DNA of 11,688 nt from a virus (IMGVR_UViG_2571042053_000015); one strand, 5' to 3'. Positions 1 to 11,688 are shown, numbered from the stretch's first letter. Notes: generated by a model not told the origin, from the letters alone. A program made the numbers and translations.

Positions 1-1260
1 ATGGCAAAGCTGACAGATATCCAAATCAAGTCATGGATTAAGGCAGGAGAGCGCTTCGAGGGGCGCTCTGACGGCAACGGGCTATACCTTCGCTATCGAG
101 CGGGGGATAAAGTGCCTGTATGGCGTTTTCGATATCAGTTCGCTGGGAAATCACGGGTAATGCTTATTGGATCTTATAGCGAAATATCCCTTTCCAAAGC
201 ACGGGAAATAGCCAAGGAATTATCCGCACGTGTAGCCCTAGGCTTCGATGTCGCCGGGGAAAAGAAAGCGCGAAAAGCGGCTGCTATAGAAAAGATGGAG
301 CGGGAGAAAAACGCGCTTCGCGTGTCAGAGCTAGCAACCGAGTATTTCGAACGGCAGATTTTGGGACGCTGGAAACATCCCGATCTTCTGCGCCGGAGAA
401 TCGATAAGGATATCAACCCACATATTGGCAACATGAAGATAGAGGACGTAAAACCCCGTCATATTGATGCGATGCTACAGAGCGTTGTTGATCGTGGCGC
501 TCCAACCGTAGCTAATGACGTTCTGCGCTGGACTAAACGCATATTCGATTATGCTATCAAGCGTCATGCACTGGAATTAAACCCAGCTGGAGCATTTGAT
601 CTGTCAGACGCTGGCGGGCAGGAAAGTAGCCGTATGCGCTGGCTGACCCGTGAAGAACTTATACGTTTTTTCCAAGCTATGCGCACTGCAAAAGGATTCA
701 GCCGCGAGAACGAGCTGACCATGAAGCTAATCCTCTGCCTGTGTTGTCGCAAAATGGAGCTGTGCGGTGCTCAGTGGGATGAATTCGACCTTGATGAAGC
801 AGTGTGGCATCTACCAGCAGAACGCGTTAAAAACGGCGACGCTATTGATATACCACTACCTCCACCTGCGGTTGGTTGGTTGAGAGAGCTTCGCACTATC
901 GCGGGCAGTGGGAGTAAATGGGTTCTCCCCGCGCGGAAGATGCAACACCGCATGATTCCCCACATTCAGGAAAGCACACTCCCCGTGGCGCTGGCAAAAG
1001 TACGCCGCGAAATGCCAGAAGTACCAAACTTCACAATTCACGATTTCAGACGTACCGCCCGCACCCATTTAGCGGCGTTGGGTGTCGATCCCGTAGTCGC
1101 AGAACGTTGCCTGAATCACCGCATTAAAGGCGTTGAGGGTATCTACAACCGCCACCAGTACTTTGAAGAACGACGGGCAGCCCTGGAACTGTGGGCGGGG
1201 CTTCTGGTTTCGCTTGAACGAGGGGAAAACTACAATGTTATTCCTTTATCTAAAATATAA
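1..1260 (+). CDS. int: Phage integrase, tyrosine recombinase, P4 / IntA-like
   Basis: Complete 419-aa ORF (ATG at 1, TAA at 1258-1260). N-terminal arm-binding-like region (GNGLYLRYRAGDKVPVWRFRYQFAGKSRVMLIGSY). C-terminal catalytic signatures of tyrosine recombinases (HDFRRTARTHL H-x-x-R box; GIYNRHQY nucleophile Tyr region). Family assignment is by recall of motifs, not database search. Confidence 0.9.
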   Translation: MAKLTDIQIKSWIKAGERFEGRSDGNGLYLRYRAGDKVPVWRFRYQFAGKSRVMLIGSYSEISLSKAREIAKELSARVALGFDVAGEKKARKAAAIEKMEREKNALRVSELATEYFERQILGRWKHPDLLRRRIDKDINPHIGNMKIEDVKPRHIDAMLQSVVDRGAPTVANDVLRWTKRIFDYAIKRHALELNPAGAFDLSDAGGQESSRMRWLTREELIRFFQAMRTAKGFSRENELTMKLILCLCCRKMELCGAQWDEFDLDEAVWHLPAERVKNGDAIDIPLPPPAVGWLRELRTIAGSGSKWVLPARKMQHRMIPHIQESTLPVALAKVRREMPEVPNFTIHDFRRTARTHLAALGVDPVVAERCLNHRIKGVEGIYNRHQYFEERRAALELWAGLLVSLERGENYNVIPLSKI

Positions 1261-1275: not shown

Positions 1276-1379
1276 GTATTCACCCTATTCACCTTTTTAA
1301 TTAACTTCATGATTTTAAATAATAAAAAAGGGTGAATACTTACAGTAAAACTAATCACCTTAGTATTCACCTGTTCACC
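1276..1379. repeat. Cluster of about six (T)ATTCACC motifs in direct and inverted orientation in the AT-rich spacer after int
   Basis: GGTATTCACCC at 1276-1286, TATTCACC at 1286-1293, inverted GGGTGAATACT at 1330-1340, AATCACC at 1354-1360, AGTATTCACC at 1362-1371, TGTTCACC at 1373-1379. Looks like iterated protein-binding sites; function unknown. Confidence 0.5.
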
Positions 1380-1452
1380 TTCTAAAGCTGCTGTGGCTGC
1401 TCCCCTTGCCCGAAAACACGCCAGCCACCAGCGTTAAAAAATACAAAAATCA

Positions 1453-1476: not shown

Positions 1477-1573
1477 CGCCAGCACTCACTCTACAAAACA
1501 ACCTAACTTATTGATTTCAAAAGTAGAGAAAATCTGCTTTATGCCACTAGCTCGCACCCGTCCCCAAAAAGAA

Positions 1574-1603
1574 AAAGCCCGCGCTGGAGACGCACGGGCT
1601 TTT
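1574..1603 (+). terminator. Candidate rho-independent terminator-like hairpin flanked by an A-run and a T-run (potentially bidirectional)
   Basis: AAAAAGCCCG-CGCTGGAGACGCA-CGGGCTTTT: GC-rich stem AGCCCG/CGGGCT with a 13-nt loop, followed by TTTT. Sits about 320 bp after the int stop codon. Confidence 0.4.
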
Positions 1604-1679
1604 GGGTACCGATAACCATGTTTGGAATCAACTCATTGAGTTCGGACCTCAATTTGCATGTTATCACAAGAAAAACACA

Positions 1680-1760: not shown

Positions 1761-2312
1761 ATGAAAGATATTACAAACATCGCAGTGACTGGCGAAGATG
1801 GCGTGGTGACGTATGCCGACGGCAGTAAAGAGGAGTTCCAGTGCAGCGGAACCGTTGCGACCATCATTGCAAGTCTTGCAACGACACTCGAGAAAGAACG
1901 CAAAATGCGCATCGCCACCGGCGACCGCCTGCGCCGCATGTACACCCGCGACAGTGATATGATTTCCCGCGGTTTGAATGGCACGTCTGCTACTTCCACG
2001 GCACCGACAGCAATGAATGCTGAGTTCATGCGTCTGGTACGTGCCGTAGCGCCGAAATACGATTCAGCACTGCCCGACGCCGACCCGCGCATCGTTGCGC
2101 TCGATGTGCTGCGCTACGCCCCTGCTGAGGCGTTCAGCGCCGTACACCCTACCCCAATGTCAGAAATCCAGCTGGATCAGGCTATCGATATACTCGAGCA
2201 GGTTGGCGACTACATGAAAGCAAACAATATCGCTCCGAAAATAATTTCTACAGGAGACGCAATCCGCAGCATCAATGCTGACAACGCCACCTTCTGGGGC
2301 AAAAAACACTAA
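1761..2312 (+). CDS. Hypothetical protein (183 aa), first gene of cargo operon 1
   Basis: ORF with a GAGG Shine-Dalgarno 8 nt upstream of the ATG. No motif recognised from sequence. Co-directional and tightly spaced with three downstream genes. Confidence 0.7.
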   Translation: MKDITNIAVTGEDGVVTYADGSKEEFQCSGTVATIIASLATTLEKERKMRIATGDRLRRMYTRDSDMISRGLNGTSATSTAPTAMNAEFMRLVRAVAPKYDSALPDADPRIVALDVLRYAPAEAFSAVHPTPMSEIQLDQAIDILEQVGDYMKANNIAPKIISTGDAIRSINADNATFWGKKH

Positions 2313-2318
2313 AGAGAT

Positions 2319-2513
2319 ATGAGCATGCCTATCTATGACCCGAAATTAGCCGCAGGCAACCCACAGCGCGCCCACCGCCCGATGCTGACCCGTCAGGATC
2401 TTGAAGCGGCAAAGGCACGCAATAACTTCGATCGCCAGAGTCGCAACCTGCAGCAACTCAACGAATCAAATGCACGGTTCTGGAGTGAACAGAATGAGAA
2501 AGCCAAACGTTAA
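2319..2513 (+). CDS. Small hypothetical protein (64 aa)
   Basis: ATG at 2319, 7 nt after the upstream stop, preceded by AAAGAG. Hydrophilic, Q/R/N-rich. Overlaps the next ORF by 20 nt in a different frame. No recognisable domain. Confidence 0.45.
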   Translation: MSMPIYDPKLAAGNPQRAHRPMLTRQDLEAAKARNNFDRQSRNLQQLNESNARFWSEQNEKAKR

Positions 2514-2670
2514 GCCGGTCCTGCTGTCCGCCGAGCAGATGCAGGCCATACGCAACATTCAGGAACGTGAACGCCAGCGCTCCAATCTCGGCGTCGCTCC
2601 CACCGTTCACCAGATTGCCCGCGGCCTCATGGCTAAGGCTCTGGCCTCACTGGCAAGCGAGGGCGTGTAA
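2494..2670 (+). CDS. Small hypothetical protein (58 aa), internal start of the 2401-2670 ORF
   Basis: ATG at 2494 preceded by GGAG (2482-2485) at 8-nt spacing. Its TAA stop (2668-2670) overlaps the ATG of the next gene (TAATG), indicating translational coupling. The longer 2401 start lacks a Shine-Dalgarno. Confidence 0.5.
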   Translation: MRKPNVKPVLLSAEQMQAIRNIQERERQRSNLGVAPTVHQIARGLMAKALASLASEGV

Positions 2671-3341
2671 TGGGCGCCATTCACCAGATATATGAGCAGG
2701 AAATGTTCTATAACTGGATAGGCGATGGTAAACGATGTGTAGCATTCCACGAAGCGGGCCATGCAGTAGCCGCATGGCTTATTCGCTTAGATATGCAGGT
2801 TATCGCCATTATGGATGAATCCGGCTACGTTGCTGGCGAACATGTACATGAAGCCCAGTGTTTGGGCGTTGTTAAACACGGCATAATCCACAACCACGAT
2901 CTCAGGCGTTTGCGGGAGAGTAAATCTGGTGTAGTTGGGCACGATGGCAAAGTTATCCCTTTCATACGCTACTACGCGGAAGGTATAAAACGCGATGCAA
3001 CAAAGGCCGCTTTTGTAGCCCTCGCTGGACCAGTAAGCGAAGCCCTTTACGAAAATAACGAAATTTTCAATAAAAAGTATTCACTCCCTCACCGCTATGA
3101 CATGGCTAACGTAAATGACATGCTCGATTTAATATGTGCCACGGATAAGCAAATTAACAGGAAGTTAATGCTTTCTAAACTTGTTGAAAAGACCAAATTC
3201 CTCATGACTCAATACTGGCCGGAAGTAGGAAAAATAGCGCATTTGCTTGAGCGGGATAACATTGTTAATGGGCGCGATGTTAGCTCGCTAATCGGCCTCA
3301 ACGTCATTGACCGGGCAACGCCATTTTTGCTGGCGGAATAA
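2670..3341 (+). CDS. Stand-alone zinc-metallopeptidase-domain protein, FtsH-like (peptidase M41-type HEAGH motif)
   Basis: 223-aa ORF. Residues 24-36 VAFHEAGHAVAAW carry an HExxH zinc-binding motif in the FtsH-like context (FtsH has AYHEAGHAI). No AAA+ ATPase or transmembrane region precedes it. Start codon overlaps the upstream stop. Confidence 0.75.
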   Translation: MGAIHQIYEQEMFYNWIGDGKRCVAFHEAGHAVAAWLIRLDMQVIAIMDESGYVAGEHVHEAQCLGVVKHGIIHNHDLRRLRESKSGVVGHDGKVIPFIRYYAEGIKRDATKAAFVALAGPVSEALYENNEIFNKKYSLPHRYDMANVNDMLDLICATDKQINRKLMLSKLVEKTKFLMTQYWPEVGKIAHLLERDNIVNGRDVSSLIGLNVIDRATPFLLAE

Positions 3342-3417
3342 CCCCTGCCCGAGCTCATTCGACGATTTATTCCTCGGCGGGTAAGCTATACCGGTCTACC
3401 TAACTGCGAGCACAAGG

Positions 3418-4476
3418 ATGATGAATAATTTAATCAATCGCATTGCTTTAACCTTTCTAGCGTTAGTACTCACAGGCTGCACTGCGGGGAAAATCGATCC
3501 CGCAAAAGCGTTAACACAAATGCATATCGTCAAAAGTGATGACTATAAGAAGCGCCCCGGCTGGCCTGCGTTGGTTCGTCTGGGTACTGACGATTGTGAG
3601 ACATACAAAAGTGGCGGCGGTAGCCTCTTTAAGTGGGACGGGCTGACGTGCAACGACAAAAGCATTATCCTGGCGGTTAATAGCAAACCACAGACCATTC
3701 CAGTGTTCTACGCTGCTTACCATGAATACGGGAGCTATGGGGTCGGGGAACTATCCAATTTTGACAATAGCACCCGAACAGGTGAGGAAGCCTCGAAGAT
3801 TCTGGTTAACCTGACCACAGTATTGAACAATCCGGCAAAAGTTGACGCTATCTATGCTGACTATGAAAAGGATCGTTGGAGCATGGGACTTGGTACAGTC
3901 AACGAAAGCGATTTTAAAAAGAGCCTGGCTACTTTTGCTCAGGAACGGGATAAGCTTGCCTCTGAATACCATAAATTACGTGACGCAAACCAAAAGAGAT
4001 ACCTAGCTGAACGGGACGAACGAATCAAACGTGAGAAAGAAGAGGCCATGGCCTCTGAAAAAACGATTGATCTCGTGTTATGGCAGAATCCAACAGTTGA
4101 GCAACAGATGGTTGTTGACGCTCTGCACACTATTAAATTCACAATAAGAAACGATGGCGTGGCATACGCTAACGGTCGCCGATTTATGTCAATTGCCGGG
4201 ATGGAATATCTCAGGAATAGCCTAGCTCTGAGTATGGAGTCATGTTCAGACGCTGGGGCATATGTTGGTGATACGGCATTAAATCGCGCATGTATTCAGG
4301 GCTTGGCGAGGAACATTGTTGAGTGGGGGAAAACCGCCAACGACCGTTCTATTTCAGACAGAGCATGGAACGCAGCCGCAATGGATGGCAGCATTAACTA
4401 CAACCCAATCAAGTATGAAATCCTGTTTTCACATTGGGCAGGAATGGCCCGTGTCTACTCTGCTCGTAGATATTAA
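3418..4476 (+). CDS. Predicted lipoprotein (352 aa) with a central coiled-coil / charged segment; function unknown
   Basis: N-terminus MMNNLINRIALTFLALVLTGC has a hydrophobic signal peptide and lipobox L-T-G-C (Cys21). Charged, helix-prone segment ERDKLASEYHKLRDANQKRYLAERDERIKREKEEA. Gene is visibly AT-rich compared with int and primase. Followed by a terminator. Confidence 0.75.
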   Translation: MMNNLINRIALTFLALVLTGCTAGKIDPAKALTQMHIVKSDDYKKRPGWPALVRLGTDDCETYKSGGGSLFKWDGLTCNDKSIILAVNSKPQTIPVFYAAYHEYGSYGVGELSNFDNSTRTGEEASKILVNLTTVLNNPAKVDAIYADYEKDRWSMGLGTVNESDFKKSLATFAQERDKLASEYHKLRDANQKRYLAERDERIKREKEEAMASEKTIDLVLWQNPTVEQQMVVDALHTIKFTIRNDGVAYANGRRFMSIAGMEYLRNSLALSMESCSDAGAYVGDTALNRACIQGLARNIVEWGKTANDRSISDRAWNAAAMDGSINYNPIKYEILFSHWAGMARVYSARRY

Positions 4477-4526
4477 ACACTGCGCTTCGAACTGATAAAT
4501 TTAAGCTTAATCAGTACATTACTGTT

Positions 4527-4552
4527 AGCCCGCATTTTAGCGGGCTTTCTTT
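4527..4552 (+). terminator. Rho-independent terminator after the lipoprotein gene
   Basis: AGCCCGC-ATTTTA-GCGGGCT stem-loop (7-bp GC-rich stem, 6-nt loop) followed by TTCTTT, 50 nt after the stop at 4476. Confidence 0.6.
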
Positions 4553-4569
4553 AGTTGAGCTTTGTACAA

Positions 4570-4585
4570 GATGTAAATTTACATC
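4570..4585. repeat. Perfect 16-bp AT-rich palindrome GATGTAAATTTACATC between convergent operons
   Basis: Verified self-complementary. Located between the + strand terminator and the stop (4619) of the - strand operon. Confidence 0.5.
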
Positions 4586-4618
4586 CTGATTATCCAGTGC
4601 GCCGTAAAAGCTGGCAAT

Positions 4619-5731
4619 CTATTTAACTAAACGTAAATGTGACGGGCGTATCCCCGATTCCTGGGTACTCGATTTTCCACCATTGATAGCTTCCATAAAG
4701 AAGCTGTTACTGAAAGTAAGTGCACTCGCTTCGTCCGCTGGTAACCTCAACTGCTCGAGAATATCTCCCCTTTTAACGCCTTTGCTGCGTAGGGCTGAAA
4801 ACACTTTATCCAGCACTAATGACTTTTCACGTTCAGCAATCCCTTGAGGCTCACTCGTACGATATCCACGGCGAGCAAGTTCTATCGATAGCTGTCGATA
4901 ATGCCATTCGGTAGATAAACCGACATCAAACGTACGGCGCACCAAAGCCGCCAATGATACCCGCCAGTTCTTTTTTAACGAGATGAGTAGATCAAGCGAT
5001 GGCATTCTTGGCACTAAAGCTAAAATACTACGCTCAGGCATCAAAAAGGCCGATGCGAATCGATCTGCATCCTGCTCAGCTTGGCGGCCGTTGTTAGTTG
5101 AATGTTTATGGAGAACCAAGTGCCCCAGTTCATGAGCTGCATCGAATCGACTACGCTCCGGCGTTTTCATTGTATTCAAAAGCACAAAAGGTTTTTCATC
5201 CATCCAGAACGAAAAGGCGTCTACTTCAATACAATTTTCCGCGAGAGAGAACACACGGACCCCATTAGCTTCAAGAAGATGGACCATGTTAGAGATGGAT
5301 AATTCACCTATCCCCCAACTTTCTCTAACCACGCGAGCAGCTCGCTCAGGCTCAGAATAACCATCGAAACTACAATCAGGTACATTAGGTTTAGGAAGCT
5401 TAAACTGCCCGTCAATCCAAGCTGATAGCTCTTGCGCGAGCTTTCCGGCTCCGAGTGCTGAGTCCCTTTTCTGTGCCGTCAACTTTGTCATTGCACGGAA
5501 ACTAACGGCTTCTGGCGACAGAGTAGGTACATCCCTGTCGAGGAAGAACTCAATCGGATAGCCCAGAACAGCAGAAATCCGTTCCATGGTATCGCTGGCT
5601 ATGGCATCAAAAATCCCTGCTTTCTCGTAATTCGAAATCGTCTTACTAGTCAATTCTGTAGCTTCAGCTAAAGCTCTTTGTGTCAGGCCTCTCCGTTCTC
5701 TGGCTATACGTAAACGCTCTGAATTAAACAT
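4619..5731 (-). CDS. Fused XRE-family HTH / ImmA-IrrE (M78-like) zinc-metallopeptidase protein
   Basis: 370-aa ORF. N-terminal HTH (RLRIARERRGLTQRALAEATELTSKTISNYEKA, typical XRE / Cro-C1 helix-turn-helix). Central HExxH in the ImmA/IrrE context (RFDAAHELGHLVLHKH). Second gene of a two-gene - strand operon, 9 nt after the upstream stop. Confidence 0.85.
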   Translation of the reverse strand: MFNSERLRIARERRGLTQRALAEATELTSKTISNYEKAGIFDAIASDTMERISAVLGYPIEFFLDRDVPTLSPEAVSFRAMTKLTAQKRDSALGAGKLAQELSAWIDGQFKLPKPNVPDCSFDGYSEPERAARVVRESWGIGELSISNMVHLLEANGVRVFSLAENCIEVDAFSFWMDEKPFVLLNTMKTPERSRFDAAHELGHLVLHKHSTNNGRQAEQDADRFASAFLMPERSILALVPRMPSLDLLISLKKNWRVSLAALVRRTFDVGLSTEWHYRQLSIELARRGYRTSEPQGIAEREKSLVLDKVFSALRSKGVKRGDILEQLRLPADEASALTFSNSFFMEAINGGKSSTQESGIRPSHLRLVK

Positions 5732-5740
5732 GGTGCATAT

Positions 5741-6460
5741 TTAGCCTGTTTTTAAAATGTCGAGATCGATATCCGGTGTAAACTGCGGTACATCACCGTT
5801 CTGAACAATAGGGTCAGGTTGATGAGGAGCAATAATTAAACGTGTGGAGAAGGCATTAACTACATTCTTGTTATTGTATGAAATCGGGCGTGAAAGCTCA
5901 GCTCGGATCCCCACGCGCTCATCCCCGTCAATTTCATAAAAATCGTAAAGTAAAAACCATAAGTCCAGTCCGATTTTATTCGGTAGCAGTGGTATAACAT
6001 CACCTTCCGGCATGTCTAAATCCAGCTTAAGCTGGCTATCATCCAGGATAAGCTCACCCTGACCCGGGGTGTTATTATGGATTAACCCCATCAGCTCACA
6101 AGTAAAATCACCTTTCTTCATGCGAGACTCAGGAAATCCATGAACCAAACCTGTCTGATCACACCCCCGGCAGAGGTAAAGGGCAACTTTATCACTTACA
6201 GTCAGTTCAACATTTCGCAGGGACAGACGTTTGTAGCCTTTCGGAGCCAGAATGTCGCGGGCTGCACTCACCCCCTCACCATAGAAATATTGCCCACGTG
6301 AGGTCTTGGGGTGATTCTGAGTCGTCGAATAACGACCAGACAAGCCACGCTCAAGAATACGCCTGAGATCACTTTGGCTCAGATTCAGGGACTGCAGGTA
6401 GGATTCAACATCGTCAGGATCTGCCAAAACAATGGTTTTTGCGAGATTATGAGAGTACAT
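5741..6460 (-). CDS. Hypothetical protein (239 aa), first gene of the - strand two-gene operon; candidate effector / toxin partner
   Basis: ORF with a good Shine-Dalgarno (AAGAGG about 9 nt upstream of the ATG on the - strand). No motif recognised by eye. Immediately upstream of the HTH-peptidase gene. Confidence 0.7.
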   Translation of the reverse strand: MYSHNLAKTIVLADPDDVESYLQSLNLSQSDLRRILERGLSGRYSTTQNHPKTSRGQYFYGEGVSAARDILAPKGYKRLSLRNVELTVSDKVALYLCRGCDQTGLVHGFPESRMKKGDFTCELMGLIHNNTPGQGELILDDSQLKLDLDMPEGDVIPLLPNKIGLDLWFLLYDFYEIDGDERVGIRAELSRPISYNNKNVVNAFSTRLIIAPHQPDPIVQNGDVPQFTPDIDLDILKTG

Positions 6461-6518: not shown

Positions 6519-6666
6519 GAAAATCACTGTATAAAATCTCAGAGATAATCGACAGATTAGAGAGTATTATCCATATTGAGGCTATCCCGACGGGGAGAAA
6601 AGCGGCTACGCCTTGCCGCCTGCCTCCCCCATTATCTCAAGGCGGTGACGTGTAAGGCGAACGTGC

Positions 6667-7494
6667 ATGAGTGGTTTTGTTTTTCCTTTCGAGTTTCAAC
6701 CAGTGCCAGAGGCATTGGCAATCCTGAACGACATGGATATTGCTCCCTTTGAAATAACCGAAAAACACCTAGAAAGCTGGTGGGCGGAGGGGAAAATTCA
6801 ACTGTGCTTTAACTGGGGTAGATTCTGGAAAGCTGGCTTAGCCGACGAACTGGCAAAAACAGAAGGCTACGCAGAATTAGGGGCGAAAGAAAAGATCACT
6901 GCGCTCAATGCTGTATCCGCTTCCCCCGAGGCTAACATCAGTCTTGTCGTGCCATCTTACAGCGATTTAAGTTTTATCTGGCGCGGGCATAGCGACGATC
7001 CACTCCCCTGTATCGAGGCCAAACCCTACGGGCTTGATCAACCTTTTGTTATCAAACGCGTTCCTCACACCTGCGAGGACTATTGCGATTACGGTACGCA
7101 GCATTGGGAAAAACTTTACCATTCGCTGCACATTTCGAGTATGGTGCTGCCGCGTGCTGAAGCTGAAAAAATTTATTATCTCTGCAACCCTACAGCTATT
7201 CCAGGCATGGACGAAAAGACGGCATCTGCAGTATCTGCAGTATCTGCGAAAACGGTTAACTATCTGGCCACTGCTTTAAAAGCTTTTATTCACATCCATT
7301 ACGGGGCTGATGTGGCGGACAACCTGCGCAAACATCTTGAGGATCCCACCAGTGATATACGGAAAGACTTTGCGAATAAAGGGATCAAAGCGCCAGGTGG
7401 AAAAGCGCTGGCCAGCCATCTGAAAAATATTCTGATTGAAGTTTTACCCGCGCTCGACAACGTCGATGTGGAGAGTGACGCTGGTAATACATAA
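6667..7494 (+). CDS. Hypothetical protein (275 aa), orphan cargo gene immediately upstream of alpA
   Basis: ORF with AAGG 9 nt upstream of the ATG. No recognisable catalytic motif. Cys/His-rich patch (PHTCEDYCDYGTQHWEKLYHSLH). Contains an in-frame 9-bp tandem repeat. Confidence 0.7.
   Translation: MSGFVFPFEFQPVPEALAILNDMDIAPFEITEKHLESWWAEGKIQLCFNWGRFWKAGLADELAKTEGYAELGAKEKITALNAVSASPEANISLVVPSYSDLSFIWRGHSDDPLPCIEAKPYGLDQPFVIKRVPHTCEDYCDYGTQHWEKLYHSLHISSMVLPRAEAEKIYYLCNPTAIPGMDEKTASAVSAVSAKTVNYLATALKAFIHIHYGADVADNLRKHLEDPTSDIRKDFANKGIKAPGGKALASHLKNILIEVLPALDNVDVESDAGNT
7222..7248 (+). repeat. In-frame 9-bp tandem repeat, three imperfect copies (GCATCTGCA GTATCTGCA GTATCTGCG), encoding ASAVSAVSA
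   Basis: Direct inspection of the sequence inside the 6667-7494 ORF. Confidence 0.7.
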
Positions 7495-8186: not shown

Positions 8187-8387
8187 ATGGCTAAGCCGCA
8201 GTGTACCCAAACTCACCCCAAATATCAGTATCGTTTTATGGCGCTCGATCGCGCTGACCGCCAGGCAAAACCCTGCAAAATCATTGTTGAGGCCACCAGC
8301 GAGCACGAAGCGCGTAAAGTGCTGGCTCCTCACTACATCCTGTCACTGTCCGCCGTTTTGCCAGTTCAGGAGGTGAGCCATGTTTAA
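8187..8387 (+). CDS. Small hypothetical protein (66 aa) of the P4-like replication / regulatory module
   Basis: ATG with GGAG 9 nt upstream. First of five tightly coupled small ORFs preceding the primase. Resemblance to small Icd-like / Ash-like proteins of P4-family prophages is only a vague recollection, not verified. Confidence 0.55.
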   Translation: MAKPQCTQTHPKYQYRFMALDRADRQAKPCKIIVEATSEHEARKVLAPHYILSLSAVLPVQEVSHV

Positions 8388-9056: not shown

Positions 9057-9277
9057 TGCCACGCAAACATCGCTCATCAAGCAACCTGATCAAATTAATG
9101 GAACGCCAGAAAGGTATAGGGCGCGACGATATCCAGATCGCAGATAATCGCCCTACATTCATGCCGTACGAGCCGAACGGAACCTACGCCACAAACCGCC
9201 ATACCCGCCGTATGCTACGCAAGCTCCACGGCATCCAGGCAAAAAGAATGTGTGATCTGAAAGGAGGTCAGAAATGA
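9056..9277 (+). CDS. Small basic hypothetical protein (73 aa)
   Basis: GAGGGAGG Shine-Dalgarno upstream. Start overlaps the upstream stop (TAATG) and its stop overlaps the primase start (ATGA). Arg/Lys-rich. Confidence 0.55.
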   Translation: MPRKHRSSSNLIKLMERQKGIGRDDIQIADNRPTFMPYEPNGTYATNRHTRRMLRKLHGIQAKRMCDLKGGQK

Positions 9278-11688
9278 TTGGATTCGATCACCTGATGGAG
9301 CAGGGGCAGAAACGCACCCCTGCTCGTTTTACTGCAAATAGCTTTTCTGACCTGTGCAACGCTATTCTATCGCATCGTGTGCAAATTTCCATCACCCCAG
9401 AAATGACAGATGAAGAGCGACGTAAGGAAAAGCAGAAACTGTACTGGTTCTCGGCAACTACCCAGCAGGACGGGCAGCGACGTAAACCCGAAAACATGGC
9501 ACCGTGTGCTTTCGGTATGCTGGACATTGACGGCAGCACTCCCGGTGCAATCACAGCACTTGTACAGGTGTTCCGGCGATACTCAATGCTGGTGTACCAG
9601 ACGGCCAGCTATACGGCGGATGAACCTCGTCTGCGTATTGTGTGCGAGCTTTCCCGAGCGGTTGAATCTGACTACCGCCGAGCGACAGGCGAATCCATAG
9701 AAACTTTGTTGATGCAGGAGGCTGGATTCTCATTCGCCAGCCTGGCGGATAAGAAAGCACGCTGGGAGAACGGCAGCGATTATGTTGTCTTTGACCGCAA
9801 TGTATACGGCGCTCAAAGCTATTGCTACTGTCCACACTCTGGAGCGAAAGCCCAGAATTACGCGGGCGCGGTAATCGACGTAGGGGCGTTACCGGAACCC
9901 GCCCAGCTACCAGCGAAGGCGGCCAAAAGCAAGGCAAAGAAACAGCGCCAGCGTGACGCCGCGGCGGTAATAGATGCTGATTTTGACGATCTGAGCGCCG
10001 GACCGGATAACTTCCTTATCGCCGACCTGCGCAGCGCACTCTGGTTTCCCTCCATGCTGCAAAAGGCATGGGACAATGGGGCGTGGATTGAGCAGGGCTA
10101 CCGCCTTGCATCTCTCAAAGGCACCGATTTTGAGGACGACGCGCGGCAGCTGTGGGTCGAGTGGTCATTGACCGCGGCGGATGGCTGGCCTGATGAAGAA
10201 CTTGATGAAGTCGCAGCACAACGCTGGGATGGTCTCGCCCCTGACAAAACCAGCTATAAAGCTATTTTTACTGATGCTCAGGCGCAGGGGTGGAATAATC
10301 CGAGCACATGGCGAGCAAAGGCCGCGTACATTGAGAAAATGGCCCCCAGCACACGCGGTGAACTGCTAGCGCAATATTACGGCAACGTATGCCTGAAAGC
10401 TGATGGTAACATGGTTTATCACTATACCGGGCAGGGGTGGGAGCACATCGCCGATGCCGAGTTGCGCCGCCAGCTTTCGCATATTTTCAAAGATAACGGG
10501 GTCCCCTTTACACCGTACGAGGTTAAAAGCGCGATTGAGGCTATGGGAATGCTTCTGCCTTTAATGGGAGAAACTCCTCGTAACCTGATTGGCTTTGCCA
10601 ACGGCGTTTATGATCTCGAGGCGCAGCGATTCCGCCCCCACTGCCCAGACGATTGGCTGACCAGCCATAACGGCGTTGAATACACGCAACCGGTTAAAGG
10701 CGAAACCCTGAAAAACAATGCCCCAAACTTCTGGCGCTGGCTGCATCATTCCGCAGGGGGCGACTTCGACAAAATGGAGAGAATCAAAGCCGCTCTGTAT
10801 ATGGTGCTGGCAAACCGCTACGACTGGCAACTGTTCATCGAGGTTACCGGTGCTGGTGGCAGTGGTAAAAGCGTGTTCACGGGTATTGCACGTATGCTGA
10901 CGGGCGAACTACACGCCACCAGCGGCACAATGGAGGACATGGACACCGCGCGCGAACGCGCATCTTTTGTCGGCAAAAGCCTGATCACCCTACCCGACCA
11001 AGCAACATATACGGGTTCCGGGCCGGGTATCAAGGCTATAACGGGCGGCGACGTGGTAAGGATCGACCCAAAGCACGAAAAGCCATTCCATACGGTTATT
11101 CGCGCCGTTGTCATCGCAACAAACAACGAACCTATGCGTTTCACCGAACGACAAGGCGGGATATCGCGGCGCCGGGTTATTTTCCCGTTTAACCATGAAG
11201 TGCCGGAGGCGGAACGTGATCCCCATCTGCTCGATAAAATTAAAGCCGAACTGCCGGTAATCGTCCGTGGTCTGCTGATTGACTTCGAACAGCCAGGCAA
11301 AGCCAAATCGCTACTTATCGCGCAGCGTGATTCAGCGGAAGCGCTGCAGGTGAAGAACGATAACGACCCGATGTATGGCTTTTGCTCTTACCTGCTAGGT
11401 TTGCCGAATCCCGAGGGCATGTACATGGGCGATGGGCGCATGGCGCGAGAGCCACGCATCTACCTCTATCATGCTTATCTGGCCTATCTGGAAGCCTACG
11501 GTTATCAGAGAACCCCCACCCTGCCAAAGTTCAGCGGAGATTTACGGGACACGCTCAAAGCCTTTGGTATTACTCTGGACAGTAAAAAGAGTAAAAAGGG
11601 CAAAAGATATAACGTCAATTTGTCTGACAGGGCACAAGAATGGCTGGGAGAAGACGAACTCTCAGCTGTGCCCGACACATTGCAGTAA
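9274..11688 (+). CDS. P4-alpha-like DNA primase / helicase (phage-plasmid primase, P4 family, P-loop NTPase C-terminal region)
   Basis: 804-aa ORF with a strong Shine-Dalgarno (AGGAGG) and TAA at 11686-11688. Walker A P-loop VTGAGGSGKSVF (about nt 10846-10880). Size and position after alpA and the small genes fit the primase-helicase of P4-like satellites / PICIs. Recalled from family knowledge, not searched. Confidence 0.85.
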   Translation: MIGFDHLMEQGQKRTPARFTANSFSDLCNAILSHRVQISITPEMTDEERRKEKQKLYWFSATTQQDGQRRKPENMAPCAFGMLDIDGSTPGAITALVQVFRRYSMLVYQTASYTADEPRLRIVCELSRAVESDYRRATGESIETLLMQEAGFSFASLADKKARWENGSDYVVFDRNVYGAQSYCYCPHSGAKAQNYAGAVIDVGALPEPAQLPAKAAKSKAKKQRQRDAAAVIDADFDDLSAGPDNFLIADLRSALWFPSMLQKAWDNGAWIEQGYRLASLKGTDFEDDARQLWVEWSLTAADGWPDEELDEVAAQRWDGLAPDKTSYKAIFTDAQAQGWNNPSTWRAKAAYIEKMAPSTRGELLAQYYGNVCLKADGNMVYHYTGQGWEHIADAELRRQLSHIFKDNGVPFTPYEVKSAIEAMGMLLPLMGETPRNLIGFANGVYDLEAQRFRPHCPDDWLTSHNGVEYTQPVKGETLKNNAPNFWRWLHHSAGGDFDKMERIKAALYMVLANRYDWQLFIEVTGAGGSGKSVFTGIARMLTGELHATSGTMEDMDTARERASFVGKSLITLPDQATYTGSGPGIKAITGGDVVRIDPKHEKPFHTVIRAVVIATNNEPMRFTERQGGISRRRVIFPFNHEVPEAERDPHLLDKIKAELPVIVRGLLIDFEQPGKAKSLLIAQRDSAEALQVKNDNDPMYGFCSYLLGLPNPEGMYMGDGRMAREPRIYLYHAYLAYLEAYGYQRTPTLPKFSGDLRDTLKAFGITLDSKKSKKGKRYNVNLSDRAQEWLGEDELSAVPDTLQ

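Follow-up and report, generated by a model that had tools for sequence, protein, structure and literature searches.

The C-terminal domain of the P4 alpha protein reportedly binds the type I iterons of ori and crr. In the GenBank record of P4 (X51522), 16 'ori type 1 repeats' are annotated, six in the origin (9310–9413) and ten in crr, which lies directly 3′ of the alpha gene; read from the sequence, they follow the pattern (C/T)T(G/A/C)TTCAC(C/A), that is, TGTTCACC and close variants including TATTCACC. The origin itself is found between orf88 and sid, some 2.3 kb ahead of alpha. For Gram-negative PICIs, the origin has been described immediately 3′ of pri-rep (PMC6092414, Fillol-Salom et al. 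2018; PMC10111431), with iterons on both sides of an AT-rich spacer (PMC6092414, Fig. 2 legend).

Here we analyse a cluster of short repeats just 3′ of an integrase gene (int) in an 11,688-nt stretch of viral DNA (IMGVR_UViG_2571042053_000015; hereafter the window), for which an earlier note had offered iterons, binding sites for a regulator or a recombination scar as explanations. We conclude that the cluster very probably serves as replication origin for an approximately 12-kb integrative island of the P4/Gram-negative PICI type, or is in any case a full iteron array of origin type. From comparison of sequences, it is likewise very probable that the array is read by the primase-helicase that the island encodes.

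The repeat array and its island

The earlier note had reported about six copies of a repeat, direct and inverted, 16–120 bp past the int stop codon in AT-rich DNA, and the copies are indeed found there: six copies of an 8-bp motif occupy positions 1277–1379, 3′ of a stop codon that ends at 1260, five with an exact TTCACC core and one with ATCACC, in the orientation ++-+++ and with the consensus (T/G)(A/G)TTCACC (Table 1). Iterons 1 and 2 stand on one side of the AT-rich spacer and iterons 3–6 on the other, and the lowest G+C content of the window (15%) is reached in the 40-nt segments that start at 1286–1294. It had also been allowed that the motif might be no more frequent than the AT content predicts, and the cluster proved to be far above that expectation. 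Five of the 12 exact TTCACC sites of the 11.7-kb window fall within the 104 bp of the array. After dinucleotide-preserving shuffling of the window (n = 2,000), no 104-bp segment held more than three copies: 1,640 shuffles had at most one and none of the 2,000 reached four. Shuffles restricted to the AT-rich region 1261–1400 (n = 5,000) averaged 0.06 copies and never exceeded 2, where 5 were observed, and GGTGAA/TTCACC is the 6-mer with the highest count in that region. An Rfam scan of 1261–1760 returned no match, and a search for cos ends (lambda, P2/P4) yielded weak matches only, none of them at the array.

The window matches about 20 of 5,426 complete E. coli genomes at 95–100% identity, including EPEC O127:H6 E2348/69 and several STEC. 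In strain 2011C-4251 it forms the body of an approximately 12-kb island inserted between yicC and dinD and flanked by a 19-bp direct repeat, TTGTACCCAAGACTGTACC, both copies of which lie outside the window, the left one 60–78 bp upstream of the int ATG and the right one about 320 bp past the primase stop codon. In order, the island carries int, some 5 kb of cargo without assignment, genes for an AlpA-like and an Icd-like protein, small ORFs and the gene for an 804-aa primase-helicase. This layout, int–alpA–pri with all three genes rightward, is that of the PICIs (PMC6092414, PMC10111431), and the placement of int at one end and of the primase gene at the other is shared with the P4 prophage. 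The integrase, the AlpA-like protein, the Icd-like protein and the primase were the only products recognised among the scanned ORFs; for sid, psu and delta, no Pfam or PHROG match was obtained among the scanned ORFs of the window, which took in part of the small ORFs. The island Int is 27% identical to P4 Int.

Table 1. Positions of the array, of neighbouring and related features, and of the cores in five aligned arrays (window coordinates unless a locus is named)
Feature	Position	Strand or orientation	Remarks
Tyrosine integrase gene (int)	1–1260	+	Pfam Arm-DNA-bind_3, Phage_int_M, Phage_integrase
Iteron 1, TATTCACC	1277–1284 (core TTCACC 1279–1284)	+	Offset 0; aligns with the first P4 ori iteron (reverse complement)
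Iteron 2, TATTCACC	1286–1293	+	9 bp past iteron 1; offset 9 versus 10 in P4
AT-rich spacer	1294–1330		37 bp, 11% G+C; candidate DNA-unwinding region
Iteron 3, inverted, GGTGAATA on the + strand	1331–1338	-	Offset 52 versus 51 in P4 ori
Iteron 4, TAATCACC	1352–1359	+	Degenerate core ATCACC; offset 75, as in P4 ori; matrix score 8.65 bits
Iteron 5, TATTCACC	1364–1371	+	Offset 87 versus 86 in P4
Iteron 6, TGTTCACC	1372–1379	+	Offset 95 versus 96 in P4
CCCC(C/T)TGCCCG box, window	1402–1412, 3341–3351	+	
CCCC(C/T)TGCCCG box, other loci	L087 957, 3276, 4053, 5137, 6642; L086 288; L036 16886; L003 278; L084 3970		
TTGGGTAC/GTACCCAA copies	1602–1609 (+), 8203–8210 (-); L001 14725, 14765, 26807, 26819		
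Primase-helicase gene	9274–11688	+	804 aa; Pfam D5_N, DUF5906, Pox_D5; SF3 helicase core and C-terminal winged helix
Origin-binding winged-helix coding region	11359–11646	+	aa 696–791; phmmer match to PDB 1ka8
Second array, TGTTCAC(C/T) ×4	L001 26550–26660 (window 11749–11859, beyond the window end)	-+--	
Core offsets, window array	After int	++-+++	0, 9, 52, 75, 87, 95
Core offsets, P4 origin	Upstream of alpha	++-+++	0, 10, 51, 75, 86, 96
Core offsets, Tatumella L040	After primase	++-+++	0, 8, 52, 75, 86, 96
Core offsets, Klebsiella L081	After primase	++-+++	0, 10, 51, 74, 85, 93
Core offsets, Serratia L086	After int	++-+++	0, 9, 52, 75, 87, 95

Several further features lie near the array or elsewhere in the window. 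An 11-bp box, CCCC(C/T)TGCCCG, follows the after-int array on the + strand in five elements and recurs just past several cargo ORFs; it has four matches in the window at no more than one mismatch, against 0.38 expected, and five copies in one Salmonella relative, and may mark the boundaries of cargo cassettes. The perfect IHF consensus WATCAANNNNTTR occurs in the window only at 1504–1516 (-) and 1626–1638 (+), and TAACTTATTGATT at 1504 is conserved in relatives from Salmonella, Serratia and Erwinia. Two strong hairpins, one a perfect 12-bp palindrome (TCATCGTCCAGA/TCTGGACGATGA) and the other GC-rich and flanked by A and T runs, are present at 1451–1478 and 1573–1603; both score as minus-strand terminators, with no minus-strand gene nearby, and the hairpin at 1573–1603 may also end the int transcript. 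Positions 6575–6642 (+), just upstream of the ORF at 6667–7494, match the Rfam int-alpA RNA (RF02996) with 46.5 bits, against a gathering score of 35.8.

Correspondence with the P4 origin and its initiator

A weight matrix built solely from the 16 annotated P4 type 1 repeats had its two best matches in the window at 1371 and 1285, and six of its 16 best matches fell inside 1276–1380. The top match of the whole window (16.1 bits) is iteron 6, which is identical to the commonest P4 type 1 octamer, and the second best (13.7 bits) is iteron 2. Set against the reverse complement of the P4 origin, the array corresponds to it in every one of its six iterons, the two sites sharing the TGTTCACC/TATTCACC octamer, six copies in about 100 bp, the ++-+++ orientation and core offsets that agree within 1 bp. 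An AT-rich spacer past the second core, alike in position and length, is common to these two arrays and to those of Tatumella, Klebsiella and Serratia elements (Table 1), and GGGTGAA at iteron 3 is kept in all aligned arrays except that of the Serratia element, which has GGGTTAA. P4 type 2 repeats were looked for by eye in the island array and none was noticed. A search for TGTTCACC in literature full text returned unrelated primer lists only.

The P4 crr region is made of the same iterons, and each of its units opens with a direct pair 9 bp apart, after which come a pyrimidine/AT-rich spacer and then inverted copies. However, the unit has the orientation ++---+, with three inverted copies and a final direct copy, and is duplicated, whereas the window array has the ori pattern. 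An alignment to crr was discarded because it accommodated only the first half of the array, whereas the reverse complement of ori fits six iterons.

By sequence, number, orientation and spacing, the cluster is a P4-type 'type 1' iteron array. Among the three explanations offered in the earlier note, it is the iterons that stand, by virtue of the match to the P4 type 1 repeats and of the homologue of the origin-binding domain described below; the recombination scar finds no support, the array being conserved with base-pair-exact spacing in relatives of entirely different cargo. The array is a fresh instance of an already known kind of element, the P4/PICI iteron origin, and only its position is unusual: unlike the P4 origin, it is located 16 bp past int and about 8 kb upstream of the primase gene.

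The likeness to P4 extends to the presumed initiator. In a phmmer comparison, residues 696–791 of the primase-helicase matched the origin-binding domain of P4 alpha (PDB 1ka8; E 5.8e-16) over the whole 100-residue chain, and residues 314–791, which span the helicase and the binding domain, are 43% identical to P4 alpha; the helicase and the origin-binding winged helix are both homologous to those of alpha. Residues 1–313 show no similarity to P4 alpha and lack a P4-type primase domain, and no Pfam family matches residues 1–350. This N-terminal third (window 9274–10320) shares 55–71% identity with the N termini of DUF927 proteins and 31% with APSE phage P3. Because the N-terminal third is unrelated to P4 alpha, we read the protein, from its sequence, as a domain mosaic and not as an alpha orthologue. 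Its winged-helix domain presumably reads the TTCACC iterons, as suggested by the homology together with the identity of the iterons; the domain is clearly related to that of P4 but diverged, and it is the iterons themselves that point to recognition of the same core.

Conservation, a second array and the placement of the six-iteron unit

In the source genome, four copies of TGTTCAC(C/T) in the orientation -+-- surround an AT-rich stretch 60–170 bp past the primase stop codon, and this second array is kept in relatives. It resembles crr of P4 in being a second iteron site 3′ of the initiator gene, and its position is that of both crr and the described PICI origins; it differs from crr, which consists of two 120-bp repeats, in being a single four-iteron array. 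Its four copies are more widely spaced than those of the six-iteron array. The chromosomal island has one array at either end, with about 10.4 kb between them; excision would give a circle with the order primase, looser array, attP, int and six-iteron array, and would bring the two to about 1.5 kb from each other.

Relatives of the island were gathered through their primase from Salmonella (93% and 62% identical), Raoultella-like (80–85%), Serratia (72%), metagenomic (66%), Providencia (55%) and Xenorhabdus (55%) sources. In every relative whose fetched DNA included the int end, int is followed by an array of like layout and the primase gene by another. Salmonella relatives that carry different cargo have an identical array, and in the Serratia element (L086; primase 72% identical) the offsets of the window array are reproduced exactly while the flanks have diverged. 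The earlier note had raised the question of whether the repeats outlast a change of cargo, and they do: the arrays are kept in Salmonella, Serratia and Providencia relatives whose cargo is different.

The cargo between the array and alpA (window 1761–6460; L082–L091) is wholly different among the relatives. It comprises ejection proteins like P22 gp7, gp20 and gp16 in Serratia, tape-measure, Dit and tail proteins in the metagenomic element, and antiterminator Q and a BrnTA pair in Salmonella; in the window, it consists of five unassigned ORFs and a minus-strand pair encoding an HTH-M78 peptidase (4619–5731) and a 239-aa protein (5741–6460).

The iteron core changes jointly in the two arrays, as assessed by counting three defined cores in both. 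The window, the 93% Salmonella element and the Serratia element have TTCAC(C/T) in both arrays. In the 62% Salmonella element (L087), GTATAC/GTACAC is present in four and three copies in the two arrays, against one and no copy of TTCAC[CT], and in the Providencia element (L091) both arrays contain GTGCAC and TTCAC, with two and four copies of GTGCAC, a core absent from the arrays of the other elements. Joint core change and conservation argue for one island-encoded protein that reads both arrays; joint change alone cannot separate Int from the primase in this role, because both proteins diverge together in the closest relatives. A comparison of the after-int and after-primase arrays by k-mer matrices was noisy, swamped by AT-rich background words, and was set aside.

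The two proteins come apart in elements of Tatumella (L040) and Erwinia (L036), which occupy the same yicC site and encode an Int that is 79–81% identical to that of the island: they have no iterons after int and carry the six-iteron unit after an alpha-like primase gene. The iterons are also the part common to P4 and the island, though P4 Int is only 27% identical. By these comparisons, the array follows the replication module and not Int. In the Erwinia psidii locus (L036), two related islands are arranged in tandem at yicC (2826–4076 and 15532–16752), and in the second of them int is followed by an array that keeps the layout but has the core GTTTCA(C/T).

Iteron clusters are widespread in this wider family. 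Among 79 loci that encode a related helicase and binding domain (L003–L081), nearly all of those whose downstream sequence was long enough show clustered iterons within about 100 bp past the helicase gene. An initial scan of these loci for clusters of exact TTCACC recovered only a minority, most relatives using other cores, and was replaced by a de novo count for each locus. The core differs by lineage, with TGAACA, GATGTA/TATACA, GGTGCA, GGTAGA, CCCTAC, GGTGGA and GGTATAC all represented, and the wing of the binding domain varies between lineages with different cores (for example, KSKKGKRYN, RDGRGKHYN and TIKGRRQTN). Partner arrays were rarely found by an exact 6-mer search, and the two-array design is thus not established outside the island's own family.

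A query with the first half of the layout (TTCACC, 2–4 nt, TTCACC, 34–38 nt, GGTGAA) matched at least 120 viral contigs, mostly of 5–15 kb, and 89 of the 120 listed encode an alpha-like helicase. Among the matches listed, 57 of 122 array sites lie within 450 nt 3′ of the alpha-like helicase gene, 33 of 122 lie upstream of that gene, on the side of the P4 origin, and 32 of 122 have no recognised neighbour gene in the stored stretch. Four viral-contig arrays among the matches listed appeared to follow int and were rejected as such, being in fact situated between convergent int and primase genes. Because the positions vary in this way across viral contigs, the origin unit is mobile relative to the genes, and the place after int is one uncommon arrangement.

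The island departs from the described PICIs in that the complete unit stands 3′ of int, about 8 kb ahead of the primase gene, with only a looser array 3′ of the latter; it agrees with them in having iterons on both sides of an AT-rich spacer, and a PICI-like island of E. coli O157:H7 carries the six-iteron unit of the window array, 11 bp past the primase stop codon. The array might accordingly be bound by the primase-helicase as an auxiliary, crr-like site, with replication starting at the after-primase array. We consider this unlikely, but it is the most serious of the alternatives: the described PICI origins lie immediately 3′ of pri-rep (PMC6092414, PMC10111431), the island does have an iteron array with an AT-rich centre 3′ of its primase, and the units of P4 crr open in the same manner as the window array, with two direct copies 9 bp apart and then a spacer. 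The details of the array nevertheless speak for the origin. It corresponds to the P4 origin in its six iterons, their orientation and their spacing, and not to the ++---+ of crr, and nowhere is the window richer in AT than here; the copies of the after-primase array number only four and are wider spaced; and in the O157:H7, Tatumella and Klebsiella elements, it is this six-iteron unit that stands directly after the primase gene. Because it matches the P4 origin exactly and is extremely AT-rich, we regard the array as more likely to be the actual start site than an auxiliary one.

A further arrangement, which we hold to be doubtful, is a two-part origin that straddles the recombination module, with the six-iteron unit after int and its partner array after the primase gene. 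In that case, replication would be tied to excision if initiation needs both arrays to be bridged at short range, and int transcription running into the origin could further couple recombination to origin firing.

Other readings of the repeats and a model of initiation

The repeats could instead be an operator for a regulator of the island (AlpA-like or other), or give the int transcript a terminating or stabilising RNA hairpin, and the array does lie between int and the first cargo gene. In RNA, iterons 1 and 2 can pair with the inverted iteron 3 (arms 1274–1286 and 1330–1342), and the 140 nt at 1261–1400 fold at -26.8 kcal/mol (z = -1.77). However, one inverted iteron is by itself enough to produce such pairing, 7 of 200 shuffles reach an equally good fold and the z-score is thus weak, no U run follows the hairpin, and a terminator scan finds none there on the + strand. 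As to an operator, the nearest promoter-like sites are about 300 bp downstream (1661–1707), no regulator of such specificity is evident, and nothing links AlpA or the RHH protein to the motif; an operator of int or cargo would not be expected to have a layout identical to that of the P4 origin or to change jointly with the after-primase array. We rate both versions as very improbable.

Even less credible are arm-type sites used by the integrase in integration and excision. This reading draws on the adjacency of the array to int and on the N-terminal arm-binding domain of Int (Pfam Arm-DNA-bind_3). IHF sites are common in attP arms, and the array spacer contains TAACTTCATGATT (1302–1314), one mismatch from the IHF consensus, with a perfect consensus 125 bp downstream. 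The left att repeat, however, is about 1.33 kb away, on the far side of int, and the array is placed neither near the crossover nor on both arms. The repeats found at both ends of the island have a different motif: of TTGGGTAC/GTACCCAA, 0.6 copies are expected in the 32.5-kb locus and six are present, every one of them inside the island, where GTACCCAA forms a tandem pair 12 bp apart at the right end and one inverted copy adjoins the start of int. This arrangement at the island ends resembles the annotated arm repeats of P4, and these (TTGGGGGCA) likewise differ from the TTCACC iterons of P4. The GTACCCAA copies are probably the integrase sites, with the two internal copies left unexplained. 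Similar tandem pairs are seen at the right ends of relatives inserted at other chromosomal sites. The presence of the array does not follow the type of integrase either, as the Tatumella and Erwinia elements with a closely similar Int lack it after int. The argument of the earlier note against arm sites therefore holds, the att repeat being located upstream of the int ATG, outside the window and accompanied by a different motif; int is the neighbour of the array, not its partner.

That the cluster is a non-functional remnant, either a scar of cargo acquisition or a decayed and unused origin, has next to nothing to recommend it beyond the variable cargo that starts a few hundred bp downstream and suggests a recombination-prone junction, given that the array is identical in Salmonella relatives with different cargo, that its six positions are kept to the base pair in a Serratia relative with diverged flanks, and that its core changes together with the after-primase array in L087 and L091, which a dead site would not track.

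Most likely, then, the array is where the island's primase-helicase starts DNA replication. Arguing by analogy with P4 alpha, ori and crr, we propose that the protein reads the six 8-bp iterons through its C-terminal winged-helix domain, two direct copies on one side of the spacer and one inverted and three direct copies on the other, and that binding on both sides would open the AT-rich spacer, for which an unwinding role is suggested by its composition and place. The helicase core would then load and the N-terminal domain would prime, leading to theta-type replication after excision, and the after-primase array may serve as a crr-like cis-acting partner bound by the same protein.

This result leaves the known working of P4/PICI-type origins unchanged. 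What had been a repeat cluster without assignment now appears as the likely origin of a family of small integrative islands, present at yicC and at other sites in E. coli, Salmonella, Serratia and Providencia. In P4/PICI-like islands, it cannot be assumed that the origin lies after the primase gene: the six-iteron unit precedes alpha in P4 and follows the primase gene in the O157:H7, Tatumella and Klebsiella elements, and in the present island it comes after int. The cores found across the alpha-like family, which include TTCACC, GTGCAC, GTATAC, GGTAGA, CCCTAC and GGTGGA, provide a natural series for the DNA recognition code of the winged helix.
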